Below the pieces are notes generated by a model that was not told where the DNA came from, ran no database searches, and saw only the letters and a list, made by a program, of their open reading frames with translations. From NCBI GenBank assembly GCA_965369865.1, contig CBDURU010000002.1:3838-67837 (forward strand): DNA of 64,000 nt, in the 5' to 3' direction. This document shows positions 2,357 to 36,457 of the stretch, piece after piece (within the stretch, counting starts at the first letter, position 1; every line of letters starts with the position of its first letter). Source of the DNA: an uncultured bacterium. Its GTDB lineage: Bacteria > JAJVIF01 > JAPKYR01. The translations under genes and the position numbers were made by a program.

Positions 2357-4081
2357 TTATTCGGCAAATTCCACCAGGATCTCTTCGATATGCCAACCGA
2401 AATTATACGGCAGGCAGTTGTCTATGTAATCATAAGTGTCAAGTACAAACTCGACCGTAATTGTGGTCCCGTTGTAATCTGTCCCAAGGTTGAAAGTGCT
2501 TTCTGTCCAGTCGTATTCATCGGTCCAGCATTTGATTGGATCGAAAGTCATGGGATAGTAATTATCCTCGTAAGGCGGTCCGCCGGTAGGAAATACCTGC
2601 TCGCCGTTCACACGCACAAAGCACATATCCCAGGCAAAATGACCAAAAAATTCAACCGGGTCGACCTGGATTTCGTGGTTAAAAACAATAATCAGGTCAC
2701 TCGACGATTCCGGTATATCGATCGGCGGTGAGGAAACATAGCTGACGTTAAGATTCTCATCCTGACTGCCAGTATCCTCTTCGAAACATGTTCCATCACC
2801 AGTCACACCACCGGCCGCATGCATAAAGCTATCCAATTTTCCCCACCAGTCCCCGCCATGGGCTACCCATTCATATTCGAAATTTTCGAAATCATCATAG
2901 AAAGGCCAACCGGGAATATTAATGTCACTCTCTACCGATACTTCATGCAGTACATACGTTGCAAGTTCCTGGCCCGGAAGACGCCCGTCATATCCTTCGC
3001 CATCAAGAGCGACAGCCGCCACCAGGACCTCAAATGAATCGGCTGAAGTAAGAACGATATTCTGAACATTCAATTCAAATGTCACGTGATCTCCATTCTG
3101 GAGGGTAAAAGTCATTTCCTGCCTTGGGAAAATTCCCGGGGACTCGATGAAGACCGTATCCTGGTCGGCATTTTCGAAATCACGGACCAGCACCTGGAGA
3201 ATAAGTTCACCCGATTGCACATCTTCGATAAATGACAGGTCATTTTGGAGCTCCACAAGATCGACTCGCCATGGCTCGGTAGCCACGGTTCCCGGCGGGT
3301 AATCATCCGGTCCTTGTGGAGGATTGTTTAGAGGCGGTTCCCAACTTGCAACAACCGCATACTGGAACTGGAAAATTCCCTGGCCATGGAAATCGAATTC
3401 ATAATGCCGCCAGTTCAGATTTCCGGCGAAGATAATCGATTTCATAGACTCATCCAGGTCCATGTTATCGGGCAGAGCAGAGAGCCCATCCGCAAACAGT
3501 TTGTAAGGATTAATTGTGCTCAGAAAATCTCCACCGTTCGGGTTGCCATATTTACCGGGATAGTAATTGAGTATCGTCCCATCATATGGGAATTCAACCG
3601 GGTTCATCCATCGGGTATATCCATCAGCGTTCAAAAGGCGCATTTCATCCGGGCTGGACATGACAATATCAGGATTGGCGAATCCCGACATTGTACCGTC
3701 CGACAGGAAAATTCCGCGAGTAGAGAATATCGTGAACTCAGGAGAACCGGCGAAAGGATGCCAGATTCCCATTTCGAACGACATCTCCGGAGGATTAATC
3801 TGCAAGTTTGAAATAAGAATGGCATTTACATCCGGAGCTTCGAGGAACTTAAGAATGTTAAGTTCAATTTCGACAGATCGATTGGGGATTATTTCAGCCT
3901 GGAGCGTATCCGGGTCGATTATGATGTCGTAGAGCCCCAGTAGATGCGTTCCGGACTGTGAAACAACCCGCGCCGGTTCAACTCCCGGCTGGGTTGGTGA
4001 CTGGGAACCGGAAGATGTCGCACACCCGGATAGCAGTATTGCCGCGAACACAGTGAAACACAATATTTGGATATACCTCAT
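2357..4081 (-). CDS. large secreted lipoprotein, paralogous N-terminal domain to upstream gene
   Basis: Start MRYIQILCFTVFAAILLSGC (lipobox) preceded by AGGAGG RBS. Shares the RLLNADGYT motif with ORF 344..2290. Confidence 0.6.
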   Translation of the reverse strand: MRYIQILCFTVFAAILLSGCATSSGSQSPTQPGVEPARVVSQSGTHLLGLYDIIIDPDTLQAEIIPNRSVEIELNILKFLEAPDVNAILISNLQINPPEMSFEMGIWHPFAGSPEFTIFSTRGIFLSDGTMSGFANPDIVMSSPDEMRLLNADGYTRWMNPVEFPYDGTILNYYPGKYGNPNGGDFLSTINPYKLFADGLSALPDNMDLDESMKSIIFAGNLNWRHYEFDFHGQGIFQFQYAVVASWEPPLNNPPQGPDDYPPGTVATEPWRVDLVELQNDLSFIEDVQSGELILQVLVRDFENADQDTVFIESPGIFPRQEMTFTLQNGDHVTFELNVQNIVLTSADSFEVLVAAVALDGEGYDGRLPGQELATYVLHEVSVESDINIPGWPFYDDFENFEYEWVAHGGDWWGKLDSFMHAAGGVTGDGTCFEEDTGSQDENLNVSYVSSPPIDIPESSSDLIIVFNHEIQVDPVEFFGHFAWDMCFVRVNGEQVFPTGGPPYEDNYYPMTFDPIKCWTDEYDWTESTFNLGTDYNGTTITVEFVLDTYDYIDNCLPYNFGWHIEEILVEFAE

Positions 4082-4565
4082 TAACAGGTCCTCCTGAGAC
4101 CGATCTATGGATATGTGAAGTCTAACCCTATATTCGTATCGAAACCCCACCGACCCATTCTTACATACCAATCAAACTGGTCCATCACCGAAAGTCCGAA
4201 GGAGGCGGGAGCCTCATGGTATCCGTTCGAGAGGGTCAGGAGACAAAAATAATGATAACATATGTAGGAAATTCAGTCCATTATATTGATATATCCTTTC
4301 AGCATTAATCATATCCTGTGCCGGAAAACCGGATAATCGTACTGACTTCCCTGCCTCAAATAATTTAACCGGAGGGGAGTCAGCTTGACACTTGTATTTC
4401 AATATGTTAAAAATTCCTGTTCGCGCGGGGGTGAATATATCAACCTGCTCGAATACAAAAATTTGCGAACCTTTTGATGCTTTCGTGTGTCAGAAAATCA
4501 CTGAGGGCATAATTTTTAAATCGAGATTAAAGGAACCAAAACGGTAAGGGAGACAGATCCCAGCA

Positions 4566-5516
4566 ATGATCGAAGTTAAAAACCTATTCAAATCGTATGG
4601 AAGCACAAAGGCGGTTGACGACATTTCCTTCACGATTAACAAGGGAGAGATCGTGGGGTTACTTGGTCCTAACGGCGCGGGTAAAACCACGGCCATGCGG
4701 ATACTCACCTGCTATATCTCGCCTGACTCGGGTGAAGCGTCAATCGGCGGTTACAGTATCCTGAACCAGTCACTGGACGTTCGGAGGATAATCGGGTACC
4801 TTCCCGAAGCCGCACCACTTTACCAGGAGATGAATGTTGTGGACTACCTTGGGTTCATAGCCGATATCCACGGACTCGGGGTAAAAAAGAAATCCCGTAT
4901 AGAAGAGATGATCGATATAACCGCGCTGAACGAGGTAGTGTTCAAGGATATCCACGAGCTTAGTAAAGGTTACCGTCAGAGGGTCGGACTTGCAACCGCG
5001 ATGATCCACGATCCGGAATACCTGGTTCTCGACGAGCCTACCACGGGGCTGGACCCGAACCAGATTGTCGAGATAAGGAATCTGATTCGCGAGATCGGGC
5101 ACGACCGGAACAAGTGTGTCATGCTCTCCACGCATATCCTTCCCGAGGTCGAAGCCACATGCGACCGTGCTATAATCATTGATGAGGGTAAAATTATCGC
5201 TGAGGGCACTACAACGGAGCTGTCCGGGTTCGCCCGTGGATCGGATGTCTATCATGTCGGGGTCGTCGGTAACGCGAATATCGTGGAGTCAGCAATAAAA
5301 TCTCACGAAAAAATCGCGGATTTCAATTTGAGAGAGGACCTTGGGGAGAATCGTCTTATCTATGACATCACATCCAACTCGGACCAGGACATTTCCGAGG
5401 AGATATTCGATATGGCAGTAAAGTCCGGATTTAAGCTTACCAGGCTGACACGTGAAACCGCCAGCCTTGAGGATGTATTCCGGACCCTTACAACAAAGGA
5501 GGTGAGGGCAAAGTGA
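4566..5516 (+). CDS. gldA: ABC transporter ATP-binding protein (GldA-like)
   Basis: Walker A GPNGAGKTT, ABC signature LSKGYRQRVGLA, Walker B LVLDEPTTGLD. First gene of an ABC-2/GldG cluster. Confidence 0.85.
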   Translation: MIEVKNLFKSYGSTKAVDDISFTINKGEIVGLLGPNGAGKTTAMRILTCYISPDSGEASIGGYSILNQSLDVRRIIGYLPEAAPLYQEMNVVDYLGFIADIHGLGVKKKSRIEEMIDITALNEVVFKDIHELSKGYRQRVGLATAMIHDPEYLVLDEPTTGLDPNQIVEIRNLIREIGHDRNKCVMLSTHILPEVEATCDRAIIIDEGKIIAEGTTTELSGFARGSDVYHVGVVGNANIVESAIKSHEKIADFNLREDLGENRLIYDITSNSDQDISEEIFDMAVKSGFKLTRLTRETASLEDVFRTLTTKEVRAK

Positions 5517-6250
5517 ATCGAGTAGCACCAGTATTTCAAAGGGAGCTTTCGCAGTATTTCAACTCACCGCTCGGTTTTATTTACATCGATGTATTCCTGC
5601 TATTGACCGGGTTTTTCTTCTTCGAGCTGTTTTCGTTTTTCCTCGCGGAACAGGCGTCCATGAGAAACCTGTTCCAGCTTTTACCGTGGGTTTATCTATT
5701 TTTCGTGCCCGCGATCTCTATGAGGCTTCTTGCTGAAGACAAGAAAATTGGAACCGTAGAAGTGCTGATGACATTACCGCTCAGGGACTGGGAAGTTGTC
5801 CTCGCTAAATATTTCGCGTCATTTGTTTTCCTTACTGTCGCACTTCTCCTGACATTCCCGCTGATCCTTGTCGTGAAGCAGGCCGCAACACCAGGGGTTA
5901 TCCTCGATTACGGCCCTGTTTTCGGCGGTTACATCGCCGCTATTTTAATGGGCGGTGCGTTTCTCGCGGTTGGTATATTTTTCTCCAGTTTAACCGACAA
6001 CCAGATAGTCGCGTTTATTCTATCCATAGTCACGATGGCGGTTTTCCTGTTGATCGGAATTCCGAATATCGCTGGAATTTTCCCTCCGGGGCTGCAAAAA
6101 TTCGTTCTCAATATCAGCCTTATCAGTCACTTCTACTCGGTCGAGCGAGGGGTAATCGATTCGCGTGACATGCTCTACTACCTGTCGGTAATCTTCATAT
6201 TCCTGTTCGCCACGATCCGCATGGTGGAAAGCCGGAAGTGGAAGGCGTGA
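5513..6250 (+). CDS. gldF: ABC-2 family permease (GldF-like)
   Basis: GTG start overlapping the upstream stop, with perfect AAGGAGG RBS. Six predicted TM helices. Sits between the ATPase and the GldG-like gene. Confidence 0.75.
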   Translation: MNRVAPVFQRELSQYFNSPLGFIYIDVFLLLTGFFFFELFSFFLAEQASMRNLFQLLPWVYLFFVPAISMRLLAEDKKIGTVEVLMTLPLRDWEVVLAKYFASFVFLTVALLLTFPLILVVKQAATPGVILDYGPVFGGYIAAILMGGAFLAVGIFFSSLTDNQIVAFILSIVTMAVFLLIGIPNIAGIFPPGLQKFVLNISLISHFYSVERGVIDSRDMLYYLSVIFIFLFATIRMVESRKWKA

Positions 6251-17010: not shown

Positions 17011-17241
17011 TACGAAATAGAGAAAATTAATATAATATATCGTATAATCCAATTTTTATTTATTATTTTGTGCTATATAGTTGCATTTTTAGGTCTAATC
17101 ATTTATAATTCTTATGTACAAGGCAAAATACCCTCAAATGAGGATATTTTCAGTATATAGTTGTCAAGGGTTGACAAGGGTTATAAAAGGTTTTATATTT
17201 CTAAAGCGTCAGTTTGTAGTTGACGCAATCGATAATTAAAA

Positions 17242-17314
17242 TGCGCCTGCCGGGAGTCGAACCCGGAGCTAATTGTGAGCTAGACAATTGCTTTATCCGT
17301 TAAGCTACAGGCGC
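17242..17314 (-). tRNA. tRNA, anticodon loop CUAGCUC (anticodon AGC by position). Atypical
   Basis: Reverse complement folds as a cloverleaf: acceptor GCGCCUG/CAGGCGC, D-stem GCUU/AAGC, anticodon stem AUUGU/ACAAU, T-arm CCGGG-UUCGACU-CCCGG, 5-nt variable loop, A73. Confidence 0.75.
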
Positions 17315-17790
17315 ATGTTTATCTAAAACGCCTCTCGCCTATCAGCTTAGGGCGTTTGTATTCATTGATGATGGCTAGAATCGAACTCCAGCCACCACCA
17401 ATTAAGTTAACGACTCATATGAGTCACGTTGAAAGTCCGCTGGAGAGGCTCACGATAAGTGAACCCCTCCGTTTGACTGTCAATGTTCATTTAAATGCCC
17501 CTCATGATTTGATCGTCCGGGGGGTATTTCTTTCTGCATTCTAAGATACACGACACAAAAGGAAAAATCCACTTTTTTGTTTCAACAAAATTCAACACTT
17601 GATAGGCGGTTCAATTCGATCCGGTTCTGGGGGGATATCAATACCCGAATGAGTAATGAATTATTTGGCAATACTTATGGGTTTGTCAAGTGAATAGTTC
17701 CGATAAAATATTGATTCATATCAGGCACTCCCGTTACACTGGTCTCGGACCGCTCGCTGACGATCGCGGCTCCGATACGGTATTCCCTGG

Positions 17791-20834: not shown

Positions 20835-20880
20835 AAAATAACGCTGGAGGGTCCAGCGAAAAAATAGAATTACACAAAAG

Positions 20881-20910
20881 CACCGGCAGAAAGCCGGTGT
20901 TATTTTATTG
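20881..20910 (+). terminator. intrinsic terminator
   Basis: CACCGGCAGAAAGCCGGTG followed by TTATTTTATTG. Confidence 0.7.
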
Positions 20911-20934: not shown

Positions 20935-21158
20935 CCACTCACTAACGTTCGTGGTACTGATGCGGTTCGTTCGGACTAAGGCCACTCCCTGACGGTCGCG
21001 GTACTGTGAATATTCACTCCCTGACGGTCGCGGCTCTGATACGGTTCGTGGTACTGTGAATGTCCACTCCCTGACGGTCGCGGCTCTGATACGGTTCGTG
21101 GTACTGTGAATGTCCACTTCCTGACGGTCGCGGCTCTGATGCGGTTCGTTCGGACTAA
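20935..21158. repeat. tandem array, about 5 copies of a 50-57-bp unit (repeat family 3)
   Basis: Unit cactccctgacggtcgcggctctgatacggttcgtggtactgtgaatgtc, with end units cactcactaacgttcgtggtactgatgcggttcgttcggactaa. Abuts the acs stop codon. Confidence 0.8.
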
Positions 21159-23116
21159 TCTTGATCCTTGCCCGATGCCAGATCCGACAGGTTCTTAAGC
21201 ACTCCATGATCCTCAAGAGTACTCGTATCACCGCTTGCGACTTCACCGTTCGCTATGGACTTCAACAGGCGCCGCATGATCTTCCCGGACCTGGTTTTGG
21301 GAAGGGCTTCGGTGAAGATAAGTTTTTTCGGACGCGCAATCGCGCCGATTTCCTTATCAACGTGGGCTTTCAGTTCCTTGATAATTTCTTCGCCCGGCTC
21401 GATACCCATTTTAAGAGTGACAAATGCGCAGACAGCCTCACCGGTCAGGTCATCCTTCATTCCGACAACAGCCGCCTCGGCAACCTTGGGATGCGCGACA
21501 ATCGCGCTCTCGATTTCCATGGTGCCCAGGCGGTGACCCGCTACGTTCAGGACATCGTCCAAACGGCCCATGATCCAGAAATAACCGTCCTCATCAGTAC
21601 GCGCTGAGTCGCCGGCATAATATTTATGGGGAATCTGCGACCAGTATGCCTGCTTGTATCGCTCATCGTCGTTGTAAAGGGTCTGGAGCATCGCAGGCCA
21701 GGGTTGCTTGATAACCAGCCGTCCACCACTTCCGAGCGGGACCACCTCTCCGGACTCGTTGACGATTTCGGGATTGACACCGGGAAGCGGACGTGTGCAT
21801 GAGCCGGGTTTGGTCGGGGTCGCACCGGGTAGAGGGCTGATCATGATGCTCCCGGTTTCGGTCTGCCACCATGTATCGACTATCGGGCAATTCTCATTAC
21901 CGATATTCTTGTGATACCAGATCCAGGCTTCAGGGTTGATCGGCTCACCGACAGTCCCAAGCAGACGGAGTGACGAGAGATCGAATTTCTGGGGATGCTG
22001 CTCGCCCCATCTCATGAACGCGCGAATCGCTGTCGGTGCCGTGTAGAACGTATTAATCCTGTATTTTTCAACCATTTCCCAGAATCGTCCCTCATGAGGG
22101 AAATTCGGCGCGCCTTCGAACATGACCGATGTGGCACCATTGGCGAGTGGCCCATAAACGATATATGAATGCCCGGTTACCCAGCCGATATCCGCTGTGC
22201 ACCAGAATGTATCCTCTTCCTTGATATCGAAAACCAGCTTGGTGGTGTGGTAGGTTCCGACCATGTATCCACCGGTTGAATGCTGGACACCCTTGGGTTT
22301 TCCAGTTGAACCGGAAGTATAGAGGATAAACAGCGGATGGGTGGATTCGACCGGCGTGGCCTCGCATACTCCGCTCTGGCCGTCTATCAGGTCATGCCAC
22401 CAGATATCCTTATCATCGATCCAGTCAACCGGTCCACCGACGCGTTTAACGACTATATTCTTCTCAATTGTCGGGCAGTTTTTGATTGCTTCATCGGTGT
22501 TAGCCTTGAGCGGAACATGCTTGCCTCGACGCCAGCCCTGGTCGGCGCAGATGACAATCTTAGCTCCGACATCGTTGATCCTGTCCTTCAGGGCTTCAGC
22601 GGAAAACCCGCCGAAAACTATCGAATGCGGTGCCCCTATTCTGGCGCAGCCAAGCATAGCGATAGCAAGCTCGGGAATCATCGGCATGTAAAGGCAGACA
22701 CGGTCGCCTTTCTCGACACCCAGGCTTTTCAAGCCGTTGGCGAACCTGCACACCTCATGGTGAAGCTGCTGATAAGTGAAAGTCCTCTGATCCCCCGGCT
22801 CGCCTTCCCAGATGATGGCAGCCTTGTTTTTCCTCGCGGTTTCGAGATGCCTGTCGAGGCAGTTATAGCTGATGTTTGTAACTCCGCCTTTGAACCATTC
22901 GGCAAATGGCTCGTTCCATACAAGAACCTCCTTAGGCTCTTCAAACCAGAAGAGTTCGCTGGCGATTTCAGACCAGAACTCTTCAGGATTTTCAATGCTT
23001 CGTTTCCAAAGTGCCTCGTACTCCTCCATACTCTTGACATGAGCATTACTGGAGAATTCCTTCGATGGATAAAAAACTCTTGTTTCCTTAAGTTTGGATT
23101 CAATGTCTACAGTCAT
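21155..23116 (-). CDS. acs: acetyl-CoA synthetase (AMP-forming)
   Basis: 653 aa, [14 protein letters not shown]-binding motif, overall Acs pattern. Confidence 0.9.
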
Positions 23117-23457
23117 ATGACCACCTGTGTCCTTAAAATTTTCCTTTTGAATTGAAATTTTTTCCTATACAAATACTTCTTAACTACCTATAGAGGGGTT
23201 TATTAATGGTAAATTCCCTCTGAAGCGCACCTATATTTACTCCGACCAGAGCACATTTTCAAGTAAAATGAGACTGTTTGCTAAAATTTTCACAATAATA
23301 TTGAGTTTTTACTCATTTTCTTGTGAAAATTTGCGCAAATGGAGAGCATTCTTTGATTTAAGAGCTCAGACGTTTGAATAAATTTTCAGGAAATTCAGAC
23401 CCTCTTCTCGCTGAAAAATGACTGGGTTACCTGACTAACCCACTTAAGCCCGGGTTT

Positions 23458-24210
23458 TCATATAAATTTCTGGAGCAAGACTACCGATGTAATTTCATCA
23501 TGCTCATCAGTAATAACCTTTGGGAAACATTGAACGGGCAACTCTTTCCCATCTTTTGTCACAAAGGTTACGGTACACTGATAATCATTATCTTTTAACA
23601 CGGAAGGAAAAATCTCTTTGAAATGCTGTTTTGATTGCGCATCGAGGAACTCATCGATGCTATGGCCTGAAAGTTCAATTTTTCTATATCCCAGAGCCTG
23701 GCACATCACAGGATTTAACGTAAGGATCTTTCCTTTGTCATTAAGGATGATTATCGGATCAACAGACGCGTCGAAGACAATATTGAATCTTTCCTCAAGC
23801 TCAGAGATAAGTTCCATGGCGGTGGTTTTCACAGTGATATCCATGGCAAACGCGCAACTAAAATCGTCATCCCCAAGTTTTACCCGGTACGTCCTAACCT
23901 CAACAGGAATTAAAGAACCATCCTTCCTTTTATGTCTTGTTTCAAAAGGATCACCCGCACTATTCTTTACTTCTTCCCAGTGATGCGGCCATTCGGCCTG
24001 GTCATACCACGGGTCTATATCCGCGACCGTCATTTTTAAGAGTTCTTTTTCTGTGTACCCAAGCGATTCACAACTAGCCTTGTTTACATAATGAAACTCA
24101 GCATTTTCATCGATCAGAAAAACCGCTGCCGGGAAATTATCCACAGCAAATCTCATGAACTCCTTGAGCTCTTGAGATGAGAGTTCCCTCTCATGCGACT
24201 TCTCCGTCAT
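23458..24210 (-). CDS. tandem PAS-domain sensor protein
   Basis: Two PAS-like segments, no output domain. Confidence 0.6.
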   Translation of the reverse strand: MTEKSHERELSSQELKEFMRFAVDNFPAAVFLIDENAEFHYVNKASCESLGYTEKELLKMTVADIDPWYDQAEWPHHWEEVKNSAGDPFETRHKRKDGSLIPVEVRTYRVKLGDDDFSCAFAMDITVKTTAMELISELEERFNIVFDASVDPIIILNDKGKILTLNPVMCQALGYRKIELSGHSIDEFLDAQSKQHFKEIFPSVLKDNDYQCTVTFVTKDGKELPVQCFPKVITDEHDEITSVVLLQKFI

Positions 24211-24404
24211 GAGATCATCCTCCTATTTTTAAATGTCGTAGATCGTTTTGTGGAATGGAGTGCCTAAGCTAATAATATTATAATTATTTCATTTGTCAAT
24301 AAGTACAGGAATTATTCAGCCCTGGAAATTTTCACGATTGTAAATTCTGTCAGTGTTCAAGCCTGGTAAACAAATGTAGACCTGAATATCAGGTTCCATA
24401 TATT

Positions 24405-25841
24405 TTACCACTGACGACGGATTGTGTACTCCAGCATAGTTTCCCCATCCGACTCGACCGGGATGATAAATTCGACCGTGCTGGCGTCCTTCTGGAGATA
24501 TTCCATGTTTGAGCGGAGAACCTCCCAGTCACCCCAGACATGGTCCCAGTAAATTATTTCTACATTATCCGTTTTATGGTTGCGAATCGTGACCTCGACA
24601 TCATACTCCCAGGTGTCATAACGAATTTCTTTGCGGTCCATAACCACCCGCTCACCGACAATGTCGAACGCTTCGCCCATTAAAATTTCAATTTCCTCGT
24701 CTTTTGGAGTGTGGTCAACACGATCCTCCCCGATAAATTGAAGCGAGCCTGACGAATCCTCCTTGTAAACCCTGATCAGACCTGCCGGAATTGGAATTCC
24801 AAGCCCATTTTCTTCGGAGTTCATAAAATTGAGCCTGACTTCAATTTCAGCTTCAGCGGTATCGCCGGAGTAATAGTAAGCGTAGCCGGGATCGAAAATG
24901 AACAATTTCTCAACCCCGATCCCCTCCCCTTCAAGAAGGCTTATCTGTTTCTGCTGGTTATTGAGGACAGTCGCAAGTCGCTGGAGGGTGTAAAGGTGGT
25001 ATTCGAAGAACGATTCTTCGACGAAACCAAAATCATCCATGGCGCTATCCGTCATTTCAGACTTCAGGTACAATTCTCCGAGTGCATAATCATATTCAGG
25101 AATCCTGTGAACTTCCCCGGCAACGAGTTTCAGTTCAGCATCGTAGTAGGCGGTTCCGGAATTATTGTTGATTGTCACCCATCCTGAGAGATCGAGGACA
25201 TCATCGTTTTGCCCGACAATTGCCACATAATTCGCTTCCCAGCCAAGACCGTCGGTAAGGTAGCTCATTTCGCATTCCGCGATCATGTCGCGGCTGGAAA
25301 TCAGCGACCATCGCAAAGTCGGACGGGTGATAAGCCCTTCGGGGAGATCGTCGAACGTGACCTCGATGGGATTATTGATGATATTTATCCCCGACCTGGT
25401 CTGGATAACGAGGTTGCCGTCGTACGAAAGTAAAATCCCGTCGATTGTACGGCCGTCCTCGGTCCGAACCTCGATATGGTTATCGATGTGAGCTTCGTAA
25501 AGCGCCGCGGTCGATACGAGGTCATACTCGTAATTCTGCTCGAGGATGGTAAGTGAATCAGGGTCTGATTCATTTACAAAATGGACGCTGGTGGGGTCCA
25601 TCTGCGAAGCGACGTCCATAAAGATGAGATCAAATTCGGCACGCGGTAACTCGATTTCGCGGGTGTCTTTTACGAGGCCCGTCCCGTCGTTGTAGATCGT
25701 GACGGCCATAAATGTCTGATCCTCGAAAGTAGTTGTGACCTGCGGTCCGGCGATGATACTCCCTGGTACCAGGAACATGATTACGATCAGGACGATGAGT
25801 ACGGGTAGAGAAATTAATCCTATGGGTTTTATGTATTTCAT
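24405..25841 (-). CDS. DUF4139/DUF4140 (MuiA-like) secreted protein, copy 1
   Basis: Signal/TM N-terminus then MAVTIYNDGTGLVKDTR...SVHFV pattern. Roughly 70% identical to ORF 26072..27514. Confidence 0.5.
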   Translation of the reverse strand: MKYIKPIGLISLPVLIVLIVIMFLVPGSIIAGPQVTTTFEDQTFMAVTIYNDGTGLVKDTREIELPRAEFDLIFMDVASQMDPTSVHFVNESDPDSLTILEQNYEYDLVSTAALYEAHIDNHIEVRTEDGRTIDGILLSYDGNLVIQTRSGINIINNPIEVTFDDLPEGLITRPTLRWSLISSRDMIAECEMSYLTDGLGWEANYVAIVGQNDDVLDLSGWVTINNNSGTAYYDAELKLVAGEVHRIPEYDYALGELYLKSEMTDSAMDDFGFVEESFFEYHLYTLQRLATVLNNQQKQISLLEGEGIGVEKLFIFDPGYAYYYSGDTAEAEIEVRLNFMNSEENGLGIPIPAGLIRVYKEDSSGSLQFIGEDRVDHTPKDEEIEILMGEAFDIVGERVVMDRKEIRYDTWEYDVEVTIRNHKTDNVEIIYWDHVWGDWEVLRSNMEYLQKDASTVEFIIPVESDGETMLEYTIRRQW

Positions 25842-25870
25842 TTTGATGTTCCTTTATTTACAAATTTTAC

Positions 25871-26056
25871 TGCCCCCCTGTAATCCCCCCGCAAGCGGGG
25901 GGATGGTTTTTTTACCTCCCCCCAACTTGGAGGGGATGGTGTTTTTACCTCCCCCCAACTTGGAGGGGATGGTTTTTTTACCTCCCCCCAACTTGGGGGG
26001 GATGGTTTTTTTACCTCCCCCCCACTTGGGGGGGATTGAGGGGGGGGTCGGTTTTT
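25871..26056. repeat. tandem array of 5 G/C hairpins each followed by a T-tract (terminator-like units on the + strand)
   Basis: ccccccgcaagcgggggg-atggttttttt, then 4x acctccccccaacttggaggggatggt(g)ttttt. Confidence 0.8.
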
Positions 26057-26071
26057 TCATATCCTCGACCA

Positions 26072-27514
26072 TTACCATTCTCTACGGATCGTGTATTCAA
26101 GGACAGTTTCGCCGTCGGATGCGACAGGAATGATAAACTCAACCGTGCTGGCGTCTTTCTGTTCATATTCATGCGTGCTTCGACGTACTTCCCAGTCGCC
26201 CCAGACATAGTCCCAGTACACGATTTCAACTCTTTCCTCTTTATGGTTCCTGATAGTCACTTCGACATCGTACTCCCAGGTGTCGTATCGGATTTCGCGC
26301 CGGTCCATAACTACCCGTTCGCCGACAATGTCGAATGCTTCACCTAACAGAATTTCGATTTCCTCGTCCTTGGGAGTGTGGTCGATTGCGTCTTCACCGA
26401 TGAATTGCAGCGAACCGGATGAATCTTCCTTGTAAACCCGCATTAATCCCTTTGGTAAAGGAATTCCAAGTCCGTTTGCTTCCGAATTCATGAATTGCAG
26501 CCTGACTTCGATATCAGCCTCCGCAGTGTCGCCGCGACCGTAATATGAGTAGCCCGGATCGAAAACGAAAATCTTATCGACAGTTATTCCTTCGCCTTCC
26601 AGGAGGCTGATCTGTTTCTGCTGGTTATTAAGGACTGTCGCGGGTCGCTGGAGGGTGTAAAGGTGATATTCGAAAAATGATTCTTCTTCAAATCCTCCCC
26701 CTGCACCGAGAGCAGCGTAACCATTCATGGCCATGGGTGCTGCCATTCTGGCGTATTCTGGCTGAACCCTGTTCACTTCACCCGCGACGAGTTTCAAAGT
26801 CGCATCGTTGTAAGCCGTACCGGAATTGTTGTTGATCGTTACCCAGCCAGTGAGATCGAGACGGTCATCGTTCTGATTAACAATCACCACATAATTCGCG
26901 CGCCAGCTAATCCCCGATGTCAGGTAGCTCATCTCGCATTCATGCGTACCCGAAGCGCCGTTTATAAGCGACCATTTCAATGTCGGACGGGTGATCAGGC
27001 CTTCGGGAAGCTCCTCGAACTGGATCTCGACCGGATTATTCACGATCACGATCCCATCGCGGGTTTGGATGACAAGGCTGCCGCCGGAGGATAGCAAAAT
27101 CCCGCTGACAGAGCGTCCATCCTCGGTCCGAATCTCGATTTCCTTGTCGATGTAACGCCTGAACAGGGCTTCGGTCGATACGAGATCGTATTCATAATTT
27201 TGTTCAAGGATCGTGATGGCGTCGGGATTTGTGTTCGACACGAAATGGACGCTGGTCGGGTCCATCGACGACGCGACATCCATGAAGACCAGGTTAATCT
27301 CGCCTTCAGGCAGGTTCAGATTTCTCGTGTCTTTCACAAGGCCTGTACCGTCGTTATAGATCGTGATAGCCATGTCCGACTGGTCATCGGATGTTGTCTC
27401 GACGATCGAGCCATCTGCAACCGCATGCGGAATAAATGTCACTAATGCAAGAATAAGCATCAGTGCTGGTATAGCGACTGTAAGTCGTGGGGTATTCATG
27501 AGGGGGTATTTCAT
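26072..27514 (-). CDS. DUF4139/DUF4140 (MuiA-like) secreted protein, copy 2
   Basis: Paralog of ORF 24405..25841. Start chosen at MKYPLMNTPRL, preceded by GGAGGA; a 15-bp direct repeat duplicates MKYPL. Confidence 0.5.
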   Translation of the reverse strand: MKYPLMNTPRLTVAIPALMLILALVTFIPHAVADGSIVETTSDDQSDMAITIYNDGTGLVKDTRNLNLPEGEINLVFMDVASSMDPTSVHFVSNTNPDAITILEQNYEYDLVSTEALFRRYIDKEIEIRTEDGRSVSGILLSSGGSLVIQTRDGIVIVNNPVEIQFEELPEGLITRPTLKWSLINGASGTHECEMSYLTSGISWRANYVVIVNQNDDRLDLTGWVTINNNSGTAYNDATLKLVAGEVNRVQPEYARMAAPMAMNGYAALGAGGGFEEESFFEYHLYTLQRPATVLNNQQKQISLLEGEGITVDKIFVFDPGYSYYGRGDTAEADIEVRLQFMNSEANGLGIPLPKGLMRVYKEDSSGSLQFIGEDAIDHTPKDEEIEILLGEAFDIVGERVVMDRREIRYDTWEYDVEVTIRNHKEERVEIVYWDYVWGDWEVRRSTHEYEQKDASTVEFIIPVASDGETVLEYTIRREW

Positions 27515-27648
27515 GAGGGGGTATCCTCCATTTTTATTTCGAAATAAGAACGCAGACTGCACAACGTGAAATAGGACACGTGAATTGTAACCGAGGGTTC
27601 AGAAATTTACTAACCGGAGAAGAAGATATCCGCAATAATTAACAACAT

Positions 27649-27717
27649 ACCGTAGAACCGCATGGCAATGCGTCGATTGTTTATTACCGAGGACGCACTG
27701 CCGTGCAGTTCTACGGG
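27649..27717. terminator. conserved-arm hairpin (repeat family 2), likely terminator of ORF 27711..28625
   Basis: ccgtagaaccgcatggcaatgcgtc...gacgcactgccgtgcagttctacgg. Same arms as the hairpin at 41684. Confidence 0.55.
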
Positions 27718-28625
27718 ATGTCCATCGAATTTATCTGCTTAAATCTCCACCTGAGGTAGAAGATGTAGGCGATAATCCAGATAGCGATGACGGTGTAGGA
27801 GATGTTGATCATTAATAGGTTGAGTCGGACTTCTCTTTCATAACCTTTAACATCGAATCCTGTTATGGAATAACTCTGTAAGGTTAGTCGAGTATCATTC
27901 TCACCGATCTGTGAATTATACTCATCCTCAAATTCCTGTAATAAATGATCATTCTCTGGATCACCAAGAAAACGGACTGCCATACCCGAGAAGAGAACAG
28001 TATCAACATAATCTAAAGTTAAATATTCCAGTATCAGTGGGAGGTATTCCTTATCGTCAACAGGATCAATAAAATTAACGATTGTACTGAGCGCGCAGAT
28101 TGACAACGAATCAGCAAGGTCAACCTCGTCTCTTATCTTATTCGGGGGTTCATCAAATGGAGTCAATAAATACCTGACATTATTAAGCTCAAGTCCACCA
28201 CTCACCGCTGTGTTAAGTACAATACGCAACCTTTCTTCAGGATTATCCCTAAGTTTAAAGAGAACAAACTGACTTACTGTAGCAATTTTCGGATATGTTG
28301 AATTAGTAGCATTTAAAAGCACATCTCTAACTATCGGCTCATCTGCATGATGCAGTAATAGAGTGAATTTAGTATTATTGTAAGAATTTGATGAAGCCCC
28401 AATTATCAAGGATTCAGCTTCCGTTTTGGTTAGCAGTCTATCCCAGGCAATCATGTATTCAATCTCATCCCACCAGATTTCGGTTTTTATAGACATTGAT
28501 GTAATAGTATTCTCTAAAGTTAGCGGGACAAGCAAAATAGGAGCTATTACGCTGAATAGGTATGTCAGAACAATAGCCCAGAATAGCAATTTCAGCTTGG
28601 ATATGATCTTTGACAACTTTCCCAT
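27711..28625 (-). CDS. membrane protein, unknown function
   Basis: N-terminal and C-terminal TM helices flanking a roughly 230-aa extracytoplasmic domain. Confidence 0.5.
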   Translation of the reverse strand: MGKLSKIISKLKLLFWAIVLTYLFSVIAPILLVPLTLENTITSMSIKTEIWWDEIEYMIAWDRLLTKTEAESLIIGASSNSYNNTKFTLLLHHADEPIVRDVLLNATNSTYPKIATVSQFVLFKLRDNPEERLRIVLNTAVSGGLELNNVRYLLTPFDEPPNKIRDEVDLADSLSICALSTIVNFIDPVDDKEYLPLILEYLTLDYVDTVLFSGMAVRFLGDPENDHLLQEFEDEYNSQIGENDTRLTLQSYSITGFDVKGYEREVRLNLLMINISYTVIAIWIIAYIFYLRWRFKQINSMDIP

Positions 28626-28867
28626 GATGGTCCTCTGCTACATTCTGCATTAAATCTCCGTATATTTAAAGACCACAGAGATTATCGGAAAGCTCAATAA
28701 TCTTGGAATCATTCGAACACCGGGGACAGGCACCCAGATTTGCCGGGTAGTTTGGAGTGGGAGTGGACGTATGTATTAGCGGCAAATCTGTGAGCCAGTC
28801 CCCTGAACGGAAATTAGATTCAAGGGGATTAGTGGACATGGTAGACCGCTCACTGGCGTTCGCGACT

Positions 28868-28975
28868 CTGATATACGGTTCTGATATACGGTTCTGATAT
28901 ACAGTTCTGATATACGGTTCTGATATACGGTTCTGATATACGGTTCTGATATACGGTTCTGATATGTGGTACTGG
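28868..28975. repeat. tandem 15-bp repeat, about 7 copies
   Basis: (ggttctgatatacgg)n, with one variant cagttctgatatacgg. Confidence 0.85.
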
Positions 28976-29049
28976 TATAAGACTGGTGGCCCCTCATAAC
29001 CAGCCCCGTGCTGGTTAGGAGGGTCCTGCAATCCATCTACATGCTCCAA

Positions 29050-29129
29050 ACAGTACCGCGAACGTTAGTGAGTGGTCTGCCAAATCCACTTATCTACCAT
29101 CCAGACCACTCACTAACGTTCGCGGTACT
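29050..29129. repeat. 29-bp perfect inverted repeat
   Basis: cagtaccgcgaacgttagtgagtggtctg ... cagaccactcactaacgttcgcggtactg, with a 22-bp spacer. Core shared with the 20935 array. Confidence 0.85.
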
Positions 29130-29161
29130 GATACAGACACGCACTCACATCGGGACTTCAC

Positions 29162-30397
29162 TCACATCGGGTCTTCGGGTAAAACCATATCGACCGGAAT
29201 AATAATAAGCTCCTCCGGTTCGCCCTGCAAAGCATAGATATTTACCCCGTCCAGCGAAATCGCGACGTCCCTGAAATATGAATCCGTGAGGTTTTCAATT
29301 CTCGATGTAAAAACCGCCCCGTCACCGGCCAGATCGATAATGGCAAGGTCGGATGTGAAAACCCAGCGCATCGATTCCGGGAAATTTCCTCGGATCATAT
29401 TCCGGTATGTATTCACAAACGACCATGTCGCGGGCGGTCCCCAGTCGGAAAGAATCGCGAATGCAAACGATCCTGTGGGCGATGTTGCGAAGTCACCCAC
29501 GCCGGCGGTTCCTATAAAAATCGGTTCGCTCTCTCCCGGACCGGTGATAAATGAAAACGCAGGCTCCATGAGATTTCCTTCGCCCTGCTTACTGCCGGAG
29601 CACGCCACCAGGATTCCCGCCTCGGATTCCGCGAGCCTGCTCGGGTTAATTCCCACCCAGGATTTATCGAGTAAATCGAGAGTATCGGCATCGTATGCCC
29701 AGACCCACGCACCGTACGGCGGTCCCATAGTGCCGTCCGCCTGTTCACTCCACTGAAGCTCAAGGTCGGTTACATAAAGAGTGCCATCTCTTTCAGCGAT
29801 CGCCCACGGGATTTTTCCGCACGATGCCTGAGATTCGATTTCAAGAATTATTTCACCCGTCTCGTCGAAATTCATACTGAGCTTATAAATTATGCCCTCG
29901 TATGCGTACTGCATCCCGCTGGCGATATAGATAGTCCCGGAATATTTCGAATAAACCGCGTTGCACGAACCATCGAGTTCGAATTCATTTAACACCTGGC
30001 CATTCGATTGATCGATGACTAGTAAAACGCCCCGATCGATTATTTGATCGTCCAACGGTTCGCCGACCAGGTACAGCCCGGTTCCGAACTGGCAGAAGGC
30101 AAGGGCTGTCGGACGGATCGTGAGGGGAACATCGATAAGCACGGTTCCGTCTTCAGGATCGAGCGCCACAAGGTTCCCGGACTGGTGGAAGAAAGTCCAG
30201 ATATTGCCATTGAGAGGTTCAATGACTAGGGGTCCCGCGCCTGTACCTGGAAGTTCCCAGGATATAATATCCCCAGCGCTGGATTCTTCCCCAGGCACAT
30301 CGGCATCCTGGGCTGCCGCATAACCGGAATTAACACTTAGAACCAGGAATATGACAGCGGTAATGAATAGCCCCTGAATAGATCTCATGACAGACAC
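29162..30397 (-). CDS. secreted beta-propeller (YVTN-repeat-like) protein
   Basis: Signal peptide MRSIQGLFITAVIFLVLSVNSGYAAAQD. Repeated DG-T-YV motifs including GTLYVTDLE. Confidence 0.5.
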   Translation of the reverse strand: MSVMRSIQGLFITAVIFLVLSVNSGYAAAQDADVPGEESSAGDIISWELPGTGAGPLVIEPLNGNIWTFFHQSGNLVALDPEDGTVLIDVPLTIRPTALAFCQFGTGLYLVGEPLDDQIIDRGVLLVIDQSNGQVLNEFELDGSCNAVYSKYSGTIYIASGMQYAYEGIIYKLSMNFDETGEIILEIESQASCGKIPWAIAERDGTLYVTDLELQWSEQADGTMGPPYGAWVWAYDADTLDLLDKSWVGINPSRLAESEAGILVACSGSKQGEGNLMEPAFSFITGPGESEPIFIGTAGVGDFATSPTGSFAFAILSDWGPPATWSFVNTYRNMIRGNFPESMRWVFTSDLAIIDLAGDGAVFTSRIENLTDSYFRDVAISLDGVNIYALQGEPEELIIIPVDMVLPEDPM

Positions 30398-33079: not shown

Positions 33080-34216
33080 TTGCCAGCAATCATAAAAAAA
33101 ACTTACAATACCGGCATGATTCAGATCAAAATCCGGCAGAATGCAGTCTATTGCTTAATCGCCATCCTAATTTATTTTTTATTAATCCCGTATCCGACCA
33201 GGGCGACAACTCTCTCCGAAGTTCTTGTGGGGATCTACAACGCCCGAAATCCAGCGAGCCTATCTTCGCTTTCGTTTCTTGGCGACATGCGTCTCGATCT
33301 TGACGATGAACAGGGCGCGATGCTTCCGGCCCAGATCAGCCTGCTTGCCGCGTGGCGAAGCCCCGATGAATGGTACAGCACTTACGAAATTTCAGGTGAG
33401 ATCGCTACCGGGATGAGGGGAATCGGTTACTCGCATCCGGCTGTTGACCAGATGATTCTAAGCCGTCCGGACTTTCTCGATGTCCTTGATATAGTCTGGA
33501 CAGTGCAGTACCAGGGTACAGCGATGTGGGACGGGGAACCCGCCTGGAAAATTCTTTTTAACACGCGTGACATAACGCTCGATACACCGCCGTTTACGCT
33601 TTATGTCCGGAAGGATGATTTTGTCCCCCTGAGGACACAAGTAGAATTTTCAGACGGCACCACCGCGATCACCGACCTGAACTGGATCGTGACCGACGAT
33701 GTTTTGCTGCCCTCGAAATTTACGACAACTTTTAACCCGCCGATCGGCCCTTTAGCGGGATATGAAACAACCTGGTTCAATCATGAGATCAATCCTGATT
33801 TATCGGACATTGATTTTCCGCGCGAGGAAGGGTCTTTACTAAGCGGCAACGATCCCGATCTGGACGATGGCCCGGCGGTTTTCGAGGAGCTTTACCACGG
33901 CTTCGCGGATGATCCGATTATCGCGCCGATCAACGATTCGTCCGGAACATATGACCGGTTAAGTTTTACATTCAGCCTGTATGTCGAGGACGATTCAATT
34001 CCCGGCCAGTTGGATTCAAGGCAGATAGCTATCCGGAATCTCGCGATCGATATAATTTCTGACTGGGATTGGTCGGGTGATAACGGATTGAGCATGCCCG
34101 GCGGGAAATACGAGTGCGGAAAGGAAATAGTCGGTGCGATCGGAGAACTCCTCGGAACCGACTCGATAACGGATTTTTATTTCCTCGACTGGGAACCTAT
34201 TGAATCGGGGGAGTGA
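33080..34216 (+). CDS. membrane-anchored hypothetical protein (third gene of MoxR operon)
   Basis: N-terminal TM, acidic C-terminus. Confidence 0.45.
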   Translation: MPAIIKKTYNTGMIQIKIRQNAVYCLIAILIYFLLIPYPTRATTLSEVLVGIYNARNPASLSSLSFLGDMRLDLDDEQGAMLPAQISLLAAWRSPDEWYSTYEISGEIATGMRGIGYSHPAVDQMILSRPDFLDVLDIVWTVQYQGTAMWDGEPAWKILFNTRDITLDTPPFTLYVRKDDFVPLRTQVEFSDGTTAITDLNWIVTDDVLLPSKFTTTFNPPIGPLAGYETTWFNHEINPDLSDIDFPREEGSLLSGNDPDLDDGPAVFEELYHGFADDPIIAPINDSSGTYDRLSFTFSLYVEDDSIPGQLDSRQIAIRNLAIDIISDWDWSGDNGLSMPGGKYECGKEIVGAIGELLGTDSITDFYFLDWEPIESGE

Positions 34217-34423
34217 CTCCAATAATTCAAAAATTATTAATCCGTGTGGCCGGATTTTTCATTTCAGCAACCCATTTCGATGGCAAGGATCTGGTAAAGA
34301 CCGCGGGATGTCGAATCGTCGGGTGGCATGATCTAGATTTGCGGATTGGGGATATGGTAGCAGATTATTGAATAAGAGATAATATTTTTTATCGATGCTC
34401 TTTAAGCCTAAGTCACCTTGTTT

Positions 34424-36457
34424 TTACAACCTTTTATTAATTTCATCAATTAAGCTTTTTGCATTGTGCTCACTAACTCCATTGTATTCTGAGATATCAG
34501 TTTGGGAATCAATATCTACTGTTATTTGTTTAATAATTTCTTTTTTATTCAGTTCCTTACCAAGCATCGCAAAGAACCGTTTATTTTTTGCAACTATACT
34601 ATCATCTCCCTTAAGTTCAGCTTCATATTGCTCGAATTCATAACCAGCGACCTTCATCTCCTGTTCATGAACCTTGTACACATACTTATTATAATATCCT
34701 TCTTGAAATATACTTTCTAGTTCTGGCTTATCATCATCAGTTTCAATGATTGACTCTATGCTAATAACTGATAACAGTTGCGAATTAATTTTTTCTTCTA
34801 GCTCATTATTTAATTTTTCTTTCGCTTCAATTCCCGCATTATCTGAATCAATCAAGACAACTACATTTAATTTTTGACCCAGCATGAATAAACACAATTT
34901 GAAAATATTACCAGTTCCACATGCGGGTGTGATAAATATATCACTAAGCAACCCAGGTTTTCCTGATTTTAATAATAGGTTTGACAAAGCATTTAGGATC
35001 CAGAAATCCTCTATACCTTCAACGATTAGGTTTTTCTGAGAAACAAGAAAGCTTTGACTTGCATTCATACCCAACGCAGCCTGTAAAACAAAATTCCTAT
35101 TGCTTTCCTCTGAAATTAGTTTATCTGTGGTTTTTGATCCTTCTTTAGTCATTTCAACGACTTTAATGTTTAGTGGATCCTTTAAATCCACCATAAATGG
35201 CGAGTGCGTTGAGATTATCATTTGGTTTTTCTCTGATTGCGTCTTTAAATATTCAAGTAAGTCCCCTTGCCAGTCTGGATGCAAATGCAAGCCTGGTTCA
35301 TCGAGTAGCATGAAATAGTTGTTGCCTAAATATTTTTGCCCATGAATTAGCAAAAGAAATGAAATTAAATTTTGTGTACCAAAGGACATTTCTGACAAAT
35401 TTGTATTGGTTTCGTAAAAAGGAGAGTCCTTATTGACACTGGTTAAATCAAAATCTATATTATCCCCATCAGCTATTAGATTCACATTATGCTGTATATC
35501 AAATCCACCGCGATCCATCAATGATTGTATGACTTTTGATATTTTTCCATACTCTAACCTTCTTCGGCGACGATGTTTAAATTTTATGATTTCTGATGGG
35601 TCCTTATTTGCAATACTCGCTATAGGTTGTAAAATTGGTTGCCTCTTTGATTTTATTTGAAATCGTTCATCTGGATCCTGCTTTGTTTCATCACCATCCT
35701 TTGCCAAGTTCCCACTGCCTGCGTACAGAGGGATATCAACCATGTAAATAATTCTTGGCAATAAATCGTATATAAAATTATGAAATGGTTGAGGTAAGGA
35801 TTTAATATCACCAATTTGTTTTGCATAGGCATTCATTGTAGTAATTATGCTTGTAAAGTACATATCCGCTTCCGCACTACCTTCATTCATCCTCAGGAAT
35901 TGTGCCCGCTGTCCATTAAACTTACTAAGGGTAGTATTAAATAATTGTATTCTTATATCACAACCAAGCCTAATCACTGTGTCTATAAGACCTATAGTTG
36001 AATCATCAAAATTAAAATCATTAAATCCTTTAGATAATGGTGTTTCTAGCGACAATGGCGTTATATCTGGGGAGTTAATATCTATATCCTTATCAATATC
36101 GTCAGTTACTGCATGAATTGTTAAAAAACCATCATTATTACGAATCACCAAAACTTCATTCAAAGGATTAGAAATATTGCCTAATTTTATTACTTCTTCT
36201 AGCTCCTCATCACTCAATTTAAATATAGCAGAAACTTTAGGTTTTAGATCATCTTCGAGCCGGCTAGTCCTTGTATAAGAATGCTCTGGAAAATAGGTTG
36301 GGATTGTTAATGATGGGTTTAACATACATAATGCTTCAAGGTGGGCTGACTTCCCACTTTGATTAGGACCAACGAAAACAGTGAAATTTCTGATATCAAC
36401 CCATCCAGAATCTATTATACATTTGTAATTCTGAATTCTGAATTTCTTCAATTTCAT
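34424..36457 (-). CDS. OLD-family ATP-dependent endonuclease (ABC-ATPase + TOPRIM), class 1
   Basis: FRIQNYKCI start. Walker A GPNQSGKS, Walker B LLDEPGLHLHP, H-loop ISTHSPFMVD. C-terminal TOPRIM NLIVEGIEDF ... VVLIDSDNAG. Gene is about 30% GC against about 50% in flanks. Confidence 0.7.
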   Translation of the reverse strand: MKLKKFRIQNYKCIIDSGWVDIRNFTVFVGPNQSGKSAHLEALCMLNPSLTIPTYFPEHSYTRTSRLEDDLKPKVSAIFKLSDEELEEVIKLGNISNPLNEVLVIRNNDGFLTIHAVTDDIDKDIDINSPDITPLSLETPLSKGFNDFNFDDSTIGLIDTVIRLGCDIRIQLFNTTLSKFNGQRAQFLRMNEGSAEADMYFTSIITTMNAYAKQIGDIKSLPQPFHNFIYDLLPRIIYMVDIPLYAGSGNLAKDGDETKQDPDERFQIKSKRQPILQPIASIANKDPSEIIKFKHRRRRRLEYGKISKVIQSLMDRGGFDIQHNVNLIADGDNIDFDLTSVNKDSPFYETNTNLSEMSFGTQNLISFLLLIHGQKYLGNNYFMLLDEPGLHLHPDWQGDLLEYLKTQSEKNQMIISTHSPFMVDLKDPLNIKVVEMTKEGSKTTDKLISEESNRNFVLQAALGMNASQSFLVSQKNLIVEGIEDFWILNALSNLLLKSGKPGLLSDIFITPACGTGNIFKLCLFMLGQKLNVVVLIDSDNAGIEAKEKLNNELEEKINSQLLSVISIESIIETDDDKPELESIFQEGYYNKYVYKVHEQEMKVAGYEFEQYEAELKGDDSIVAKNKRFFAMLGKELNKKEIIKQITVDIDSQTDISEYNGVSEHNAKSLIDEINKRL

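Follow-up and report, generated by a model that had tools for sequence, protein, structure and literature searches.

The window analysed here, a 64-kb stretch of DNA from an uncultured bacterium (contig CBDURU010000002.1 of assembly GCA_965369865.1), carries two tandem genes on its minus strand, and the spacer between them holds an array of five C6-7/G6-7 stem-loops, each followed on the plus strand by a run of five to seven T (25883-26057). As read from its sequence and its relatives, this array is a young, locus-specific and fast-evolving minisatellite in the spacer of a probable two-gene operon, and not a conserved control element. The two flanking proteins are paralogs, 70% identical, and the map of open reading frames (ORFs) places both genes on the minus strand, in agreement with an earlier note that had been made from the sequence alone. 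That note had also labelled both genes DUF4139. The database homologues of both paralogs do carry this annotation, but the Pfam DUF4139 scores of the upstream product (30.7 bits) and of the downstream product (20.4 bits) fall under the gathering cut-off of 31.8 bits, and the proteins are called DUF4139-like here. The features that frame the array are the following.

24405-25841, minus strand: downstream DUF4139-like paralog, 478 amino acids (aa); ORF map, Pfam and homologues
25842-26071, minus strand: intercistronic spacer, 230 nucleotides (nt), holding the entire array; ORF map and sequence
25849-25854, minus strand: AAGGAA, Shine-Dalgarno-like site of the downstream paralog; sequence
26072-27514, minus strand: upstream DUF4139-like paralog, 480 aa from ATG 27514, the longest ORF starting at GTG 27562; ORF map and Pfam

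Structure of the hairpin array

The units are numbered U0 to U4, U0 being the hairpin nearest to the downstream gene. They are listed below with their folding energies, together with the repeat to which most of them belong and a neighbouring C tract.

25873-25878, plus strand: C6 tract, read as G6 in the sense direction, lying between U0 and the ribosome-binding site of the downstream gene, also present in the related locus L003; sequence and alignment
25883-25913, plus strand: U0, stem-loop ATCCCCCC-GCAA-GCGGGGGGAT (hairpin 25883-25904), then GG and T7 (25907-25913); -18.5 kcal/mol on the plus strand and -18.0 on the minus strand; sequence, terminator scan and folding
25914-25946, plus strand: U1, ACCTCCCCCC-AACTT-GGAGGGGATGGT (hairpin 25914-25940), then GTTTTT, the TGTTTTT ending at 25946; copy 2 of the 33-bp repeat; -15.3 (plus) and -14.9 (minus) kcal/mol; Tandem Repeats Finder and pattern match
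25947-25979, plus strand: U2, the 33-mer as in U1 (hairpin 25947-25973), with T7 (25973-25979); -14.7 (plus) and -14.9 (minus) kcal/mol; Tandem Repeats Finder and pattern match
25980-26012, plus strand: U3, ACCTCCCCCC-AACTT-GGGGGGGATGGT (hairpin 25980-26006), then T6-7 (T7 at 26006-26012); -18.3 (plus) and -17.9 (minus) kcal/mol; the best terminator look-alike; pattern match and terminator scan
26013-26057, plus strand: U4, CCTCCCCCCC-ACTT-GGGGGGG, ATTGA, G8 and TCGG (hairpin to TCGG 26013-26052), then T6 (26052-26057); -21.9 kcal/mol with the G8 included; folding and alignment
25899-26036, no strand assigned: the 33-bp tandem repeat proper, 4.2 copies, 96% matches, score 248; Tandem Repeats Finder

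The five plus-strand units of G/C hairpin and T-run that the earlier note had described at 25871-26056 are present as described, and by scan and folding they have the form of stacked terminators. U1 to U3 are three units of the 33-mer ACCTCCCCCC-AACTT-GG(A/G)GGGGATGG-T(G/T)TTTTT, for which the window contains three matches with at most three mismatches, against 0.00 expected. The pattern C6N5G6 with at most one mismatch returns eight matches in the window, all of them within the array, against 0.21 expected. The window has 26 C or G runs that are six bases or longer, and 10 of them fall in the 186 bases of the array. In the register set by Tandem Repeats Finder, the repeat runs from the 3' arm of U0 to that of U4, each copy extending from one GGGGAT to the next, and four of the five hairpins belong to it; this register fits unequal exchange or slippage between near-identical arms. 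A CRISPR array is rejected, since the 33-bp units are contiguous and lack spacers. Rfam analysis of the whole window at the gathering threshold returns one tRNA only, and that of the spacer at E-values up to 10 reports a best match of 27 bits against a threshold of 71. The array is backed by an identical ENA scaffold (L002), and a Logan contig (L001) breaks inside the repeat; both may share their sample with the window, and the exact copy number rests on short-read assembly.

On the sense (minus) strand, the RNA of each unit reads CCAU-C7-AAGUU-G6AGGU-A7. The 3' arm thus contains a perfect Shine-Dalgarno-like GGAGGU, which is buried inside the hairpin in each unit and is followed by the A-tract, and the sense strand passes from A-tract to hairpin, just as the earlier note had stated. 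The hairpins are equally stable on the minus strand, so that the T-tract represents the only strand asymmetry, and folding of the entire spacer gives z-scores near -7.4 for both strands. The AAGGAA of the downstream paralog lies past the last hairpin, in an A/U-rich tail, and is unpaired when the sense strand takes its fold of minimum free energy. A terminator consensus scan of the window reports repeated plus-strand matches at U0 and U3, with up to nine pairs, seven of them G-C, and then T7; in folds of single units, the plus-strand U-tract begins directly at the base of the stem. The form of an intrinsic terminator is found on the plus strand only, the minus-strand hairpins being followed by A-tracts, and its usual placement is not found, as the array does not lie at the 3' end of a co-oriented transcription unit. 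The variant of U1 and U2 (GGAGGGG on the plus strand, CCCCUCC in the sense RNA, where alone the G-U pair is kept) was considered as a means to discriminate between the strands and dropped, because the plus strand refolds in another register at equal energy.

Comparison with related loci

The relatives are contigs that encode the closest homologues, read in the gene-sense orientation, and all of them have the same tandem pair. In L004 and L005 (81% protein identity), the spacers measure 12 and 11 nt and comprise only a Shine-Dalgarno sequence and the ATG, without any hairpin, and at ~75% identity the spacer has 27 nt in L020 and consists of 76 nt of unrelated sequence in L019. Each paralog of the window is 81-82% identical to its own orthologue in L004/L005 and 70-73% identical to the other paralog; the duplication is therefore far older than these splits. 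The G/C hairpins are confined to three lineages, those of the window, of L003 and of L017/L018/L021, which are about equidistant from one another (~89-94% pairwise DNA identity in the flanks).

The three assemblies L017, L018 and L021 (~95% protein identity) have one hairpin, in the sequence TAA-tggtcaaaataccga-C8-TCAAT-C7-tctg-GGTGGGAGGT-AAAAAAC..., so that this lineage already contains the hairpin, the GGAGGT and an A6. L003 has three diverged hairpins, with unique 11- and 27-nt spacers between them and without A/T-tracts, and the window has five. The earlier note had suggested a search of relatives for a single unit; this proved to be the informative check, one lineage having exactly one. 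In the alignment, all three lineages share one stretch that begins at the stop codon and takes in C8-TCAAT-C7, hairpin 1 and GGAGGTA, the U4 hairpin and the sense-strand C8-TCAAT-C7 core being invariant among them. At the other end, U0 is common to the window and L003, whereas the interior of the array is wholly different. The U0 of L003 carries the tail TGTTGTCCC rather than T7, and the tails compare as ATGGTGTTGTCCC in L003, ATGGTGTTTTT in U1 of the window and ATGGTTTTTTT in the other units of the window; from these differences, the T7 tracts look derived. The same terminator scan, applied to the L017 and L003 spacers, reports 0 terminator-like sites on either strand. Compared for covariation, the orthologous hairpins prove either identical (window and L003) or different by one uncompensated change (L017).

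The gene callers are inconsistent on this spacer: in L017 it is fused in frame to the gene (4446-5963, 505 aa as against ~479), and in L002 it forms a separate 72-aa gene (2850-3068). Each of these calls probably arose as an artefact of annotating a spacer poor in stops.

Search for further copies

An exact-pattern scan of one genome per GTDB species returns six single matches in unrelated phyla, attributed to chance, and the same scan of the JGI metagenomes returns five, again by chance only. Three matches in IMG/VR lie inside phage coding sequence, and blastn against plasmids reports no match to the array. A relaxed motif, run over all the related loci that were fetched, matches solely in this spacer, in L001-L003. 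Within these collections and loci a dispersed repeat family is rejected, as beyond this junction there are only chance or coding matches in unrelated taxa. Neither the genome scan nor the metagenome scan returned the window's own locus, its source genome lying outside those collections.

Transcriptional context of the array

From 21155 to 30397, every ORF that reaches 140 aa and has family, homologue or synteny support is on the minus strand. In the order of transcription, from 30397 to 21155, they comprise a 411-aa ORF, a 304-aa ORF, the two DUF4139-like genes, a PAS-domain gene and an acetyl-CoA synthetase gene, and the plus-strand ORFs of at least 140 aa in this interval are all nested in minus-strand genes. 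The nearest free-standing plus-strand ORF of that size stops at 20834 and is followed by a terminator of its own at 20879-20901, a canonical bidirectional hairpin with U-tract located between convergent genes, which indicates that the organism employs ordinary intrinsic terminators. It also employs sigma70-type promoters, to judge from the near-consensus minus-strand promoter TTGACA-16-TATTAT of the PAS gene. No minus-strand sigma70-like promoter was found inside the spacer in any of the three array-bearing lineages, and an internal promoter for the downstream paralog is rejected on this ground. Promoter-like sites around the array number 7, against 15.8 in shuffled sequences; the only plus-strand site, at 24377-24404, is weak (9/12 matches).

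At its start, the upstream paralog carries a 15-bp tandem duplication (2.5 copies, 27489-27524) that doubles the ATG region (CCCCCTCATGAA(A)TA) and translates into MKYPLMNTPR. This duplication makes the start codon of the gene ambiguous between GTG 27562, ATG 27514 and ATG 27499.

Origin of the array and proposed effect

The hairpin-free junctions of 11-12 nt, together with the one, three and five hairpins of the close relatives, indicate that the array is much younger than the gene duplication. The ancestral module sat just past the upstream stop; in the sense direction it consisted of C8-TCAAT-C7, then a short loop, then G7AGGU with an A-tract behind it, and so formed a G/C hairpin with GGAGGU buried inside. 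Head-to-tail copies of this module then arose through recombination or replication slippage between its near-identical C-run and G-run arms. Such copying sets each A-tract between two hairpins and, on the opposite strand, a T-tract 3' of the neighbouring hairpin. This geometry means that the five stacked plus-strand terminators need no selective explanation.

As for its effect, the paralog pair is most likely still co-transcribed, because the outgroup junctions of 11-12 nt imply an ancestral operon and no promoter is detectable in the spacer of any lineage. The sense RNA polymerase would encounter an A-tract and then a hairpin, an order that does not make a terminator, and would read through, yielding a bicistronic mRNA whose cistrons are separated by as many as five stem-loops, at -15 to -18 kcal/mol. 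These stem-loops would abolish the tight translational (termination-reinitiation) coupling seen with 11-12 nt spacers. They may also block 3'-to-5' exonucleases and thereby favour the upstream cistron, like the repetitive extragenic palindrome (REP) hairpins of malE-malF, and the hairpin copy number could tune the ratio of the two paralogs. The stop of stray antisense transcripts would be a side effect and not the array's reason to exist. Among the roles put forward in the earlier note, that of a structured intercistronic RNA element best fits the evidence. Taken as one package, the origin by tandem copying, which the repeat and its relatives show, and the effect on the intercistronic mRNA stand at about an even chance of being right.

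Several points weigh against this reading. Co-transcription and the effects on mRNA stability and translation are what we infer from sequence features. One, three or five hairpins at ~90% identity without compensatory changes fit a neutral repeat and a tuning element equally well. Compared with those of L003, the A/T-tracts of the window are purer (TGTTGT, then TGTTTTT, then TTTTTTT), and this purity could reflect selection for plus-strand termination rather than homogenisation by copying. Judged by the terminator at 20879-20901, the plus-strand units would be strong terminators if transcribed. Lastly, the array is locus-specific on the evidence of the 64-kb window and ~100 kb of related loci.

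Alternative readings

The array could be neutral, that is, a variable repeat made by slippage that has no measurable effect and is tolerated since the downstream gene keeps an accessible ribosome-binding site. The quick turnover among lineages at ~90% identity with no compensatory changes, the further tandem repeats nearby and the lack of any homologous element elsewhere in the collections and loci scanned all agree with neutrality. Nevertheless, five stem-loops of -15 to -18 kcal/mol placed in a once-coupled junction of 11-12 nt are unlikely to spare coupling and mRNA decay, and three lineages share the C8-TCAAT-C7 and hairpin-1 core unchanged although it includes homopolymers, which are normally hypermutable; we thus regard neutrality as unlikely, if worth keeping in mind. 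A selected antisense insulator, also suggested in the earlier note, would use the plus-strand hairpin and U-tract units to terminate antisense RNA polymerases coming from within or downstream of the second paralog, and would spare the upstream paralog both antisense transcription and head-on collisions, sense polymerases being let through. Indeed, the units match the consensus form of a terminator better than the organism's own terminator at 20879-20901, their T-tracts are purer in the window lineage than in L003, and the weak site at 24377-24404 is promoter-like on the required strand. Yet no plus-strand gene lies upstream, the nearest plus-strand ORF of at least 140 aa being closed by its own terminator, and promoter-like sites are fewer than in shuffles, so that no plus-strand gene or convincing promoter feeds the array; moreover, the sister lineages lack both T-tracts and terminator-like sites, and tandem copying explains the geometry without selection. 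The insulator is physically plausible but finds no comparative support and appears quite unlikely, antisense termination as such being possible, though unsupported. The same doubt attaches to a one-way transcriptional valve, in which expansion of the minisatellite would have stacked five strong terminators that face antisense polymerases only and insulate the upstream paralog, sense polymerases reading through and the copy number setting the tightness; if true, the terminators would have been born through tandem duplication and not through point mutation.

Two further features enter the remaining alternatives.

25854-26078, minus strand: compositional ORF of 74 codons, 72 from ATG 26072, where it overlaps the upstream stop as TAATG; ORF map
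26028-26047, plus strand (template strand of the operon): G7-ATTGA-G8, of the form GGG-N1-GGG-N5-GGG-N1-2-GGG; G4Hunter 2.56

The ORF runs the full length of the array and closes 12 nt ahead of the downstream ATG, with a repeat period that amounts to 11 codons. It might couple the two genes if ribosomes translated from TAATG through the array, melted the hairpins and reached the downstream start. TAATG occurs in all three array-bearing lineages and not in the outgroups; in the window the frame stays open until 12 nt short of the ATG, and by reading of the sequences it closes with an ATGA overlap in L003 and continues in frame into the gene in L017, for which a gene caller gave the 505-aa product; it was called as a gene in L002, and the 33-bp period is divisible by three. 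However, two of the three sense frames are stop-free merely from the T-poor sense strand, each of the three frames meets a stop no farther than ~25 nt from the ATG in any case (sequence reading), one unit of L003 is 50 nt and not divisible by three, the ORF itself lacks a good Shine-Dalgarno sequence, a TAA is followed by TG in 1 of 16 cases by chance, and the peptide is without homologues. Such coupling is decidedly improbable, and the ORF is probably not a protein gene: the 74-aa repeat peptide returns no match at E-values up to 1 among 5.8 billion proteins and no record lists its 72-aa form as a gene product, on which grounds a real small protein is rejected. An element acting at the level of DNA, either as a G-quadruplex or i-motif or as a phase-variable homopolymer switch controlling the downstream paralog, would draw on the many C6-C8 and G6-G8 tracts and on G7-ATTGA-G8, whose G4Hunter score is the maximum of the window and which is conserved in L003, L017 and L021. 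The G-quadruplex potential raised in the earlier note is retained for this segment, predicted from sequence as the only canonical motif of the array (four G runs of at least three, loops of at most 7 nt). Elsewhere it is not, each G run being complementary to an adjacent C run, with a net G4Hunter score of ~0, and the hairpin or duplex should win; in addition, tract lengths are nearly equal across lineages, unlike those of a phase-variable site, and no promoter overlaps the tracts, which leaves a DNA-level element very unlikely. Finally, the earlier note had also considered a recombination scar of the tandem duplication that made the two paralogs, and the array does sit exactly at their junction. 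The duplication predates the split from relatives with 81-82% orthologues and hairpin-free junctions of 11-12 nt, and the array is found only in a clade at ~90% DNA identity; the scar is refuted by the age of the duplication and by these outgroup junctions, and its chances are vanishingly small.

Likeness to known systems

Among known systems, the array would by analogy act most like the hairpins of REPs and bacterial interspersed mosaic elements (BIMEs) in operon spacers. Like them, it is made of short, G/C-rich, imperfect palindromes that are extragenic, clustered, placed between genes that are probably co-transcribed and stable on either strand, its hairpins measuring 20-27 nt in the 230-nt spacer. 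REPs raise mRNA stability and can terminate transcription (PMC3479197), and malE-malF and menBCE possess intercistronic 3' protective hairpins, consecutive ones in the case of menBCE (PMC5927463). The action proposed for the array, a barrier to 3' exonucleases with differential cistron stability and occasional termination, is the documented action of REPs (PMC3479197, PMC5927463). In contrast, REPs are dispersed in hundreds of copies, often in alternating orientation, with a 5' GTAG and a REP-associated tyrosine transposase (RAYT), whereas the array occupies a single locus, its copies are direct and contiguous and lack GTAG, and no second copy occurs in anything searched. Many dispersed copies were not found in the 64-kb window, the related loci and the collections, the rest of the source genome lying outside the scans. 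No GTAG stands beside the hairpins, and a weak Y1_Tnp gene occurs only in the distant L005, far from the junction; for RAYT genes the window was not exhaustively screened.

The array also resembles the interspersed repetitive units of mycobacteria (MIRUs) that form variable-number tandem repeats: its tandem units lie in an operon spacer, their copy number varies among close relatives (1, 3, 5), and they are read through by an ORF that overlaps the upstream stop (TAATG), with a period that is a whole number of codons. MIRUs are a dispersed Mycobacterium family present at many loci, which insert at start codons with a -4 overlap and carry a coupled ORF (PMC12548453). The array differs in that it is found at a single locus and not as a dispersed family, that its 33-bp units are nearly all hairpin and that its open frame is explained by composition. 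As for intrinsic terminators, the plus strand offers a G/C stem that is 8-10 pairs long, with 4-6 nt in its loop, and a U-tract of 5-7 that begins 0-2 nt past the stem, which matches the form of the organism's terminator at 20879-20901. Unlike single or tandem terminators, however, the array opposes both flanking genes, has no plus-strand unit to end, and its T-tracts are unconserved in the sister lineages.

Frameshift cassettes of the dnaX/IS911 type combine an upstream Shine-Dalgarno-like sequence, an A-rich slippery run and a downstream hairpin. The sense unit of the array has the same order of parts (GGAGGU, A7, 4 nt and a strong hairpin), which is a resemblance only: there is no sign of translation of the spacer and no second coding frame, and the order is automatic from the repeat. 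Both a frameshift cassette and DNA bending by phased A-tracts (33 bp corresponding to ~3 helical turns) were set aside as resemblances without supporting evidence.

Other repeats and genes in the window

The neighbourhood contains further intergenic micro- and minisatellites, with periods of 50, 13, 15 and 23, and this number of nearby tandem repeats suggests that the lineage is generally prone to such duplications. A motif of ~24 nt, AGTACCGCGAACGTTAGTGAGTGG, occurs four times in the window, where none is expected. The acetyl-CoA synthetase gene has two copies on its 3' side (20935-21149), one of them in a tandem repeat of 50 bp x 3.2 (20992-21149), and two perfect copies form an inverted repeat (29052-29075 and 29106-29129), so that the copies flank on both sides a minus-strand gene block of ~8 kb. 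They could be a dispersed REP-like family or the binding sites of a regulator. The inverted repeat is adjoined by a 13-bp unit (sense ACCGTATATCAGA) present in 7.6 copies of 97% identity (28867-28979), in a 536-nt spacer (28626-29161) upstream of the 304-aa gene, where it looks iteron-like or operator-like. Another tandem repeat (48156-48224; period 23, three copies, 93% identity) starts 168 nt past a plus-strand ORF ending at 47988 and runs 3 nt into the stop end of the minus-strand ORF 48227-49183.

At 17241-17315 on the minus strand, ARAGORN identifies a tRNA-Ala with anticodon AGC, which scores 62 bits against the Rfam tRNA model. Its anticodon loop is CTAGCTC (A34, U37) and its acceptor has G3:C70 and not the alanine identity pair G3:U70; this tRNA is odd for a bacterium. 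A low-GC patch (34001-36000, 0.364 versus ~0.47 elsewhere) overlaps a minus-strand gene (34424-36457) for a 677-aa AAA_15/AAA_21 ATPase of the AbiEii/OLD-like type, which may be a horizontally acquired defence gene. The asparaginyl-tRNA synthetase (AsnRS) of the window is 83% identical to its nearest homologues and ~55% identical at the first named phyla (Balneolia, Planctomycetota), which points to a deep, unclassified bacterial lineage; the contig of one relative encodes Mfd, Pth and L25, confirming its place within Bacteria.

Significance

The array belongs to a known kind, that of hairpin-bearing intergenic tandem repeats, and is otherwise ordinary: it is not conserved, has no family and has no link to a known system. 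Its interest lies in the natural series that it forms with its relatives, in which a structured intergenic element grows from a coupled junction of 11-12 nt to one, three and five hairpins. A terminator stack that looks perfect and stands on the "wrong" strand can arise purely via head-to-tail copying, which calls for caution with terminator predictors and with the reading of antisense terminators as designed insulators. If the paralog ratio is indeed tuned by how many hairpins there are, the array would constitute a simple and evolvable expression dial in an uncultured lineage.

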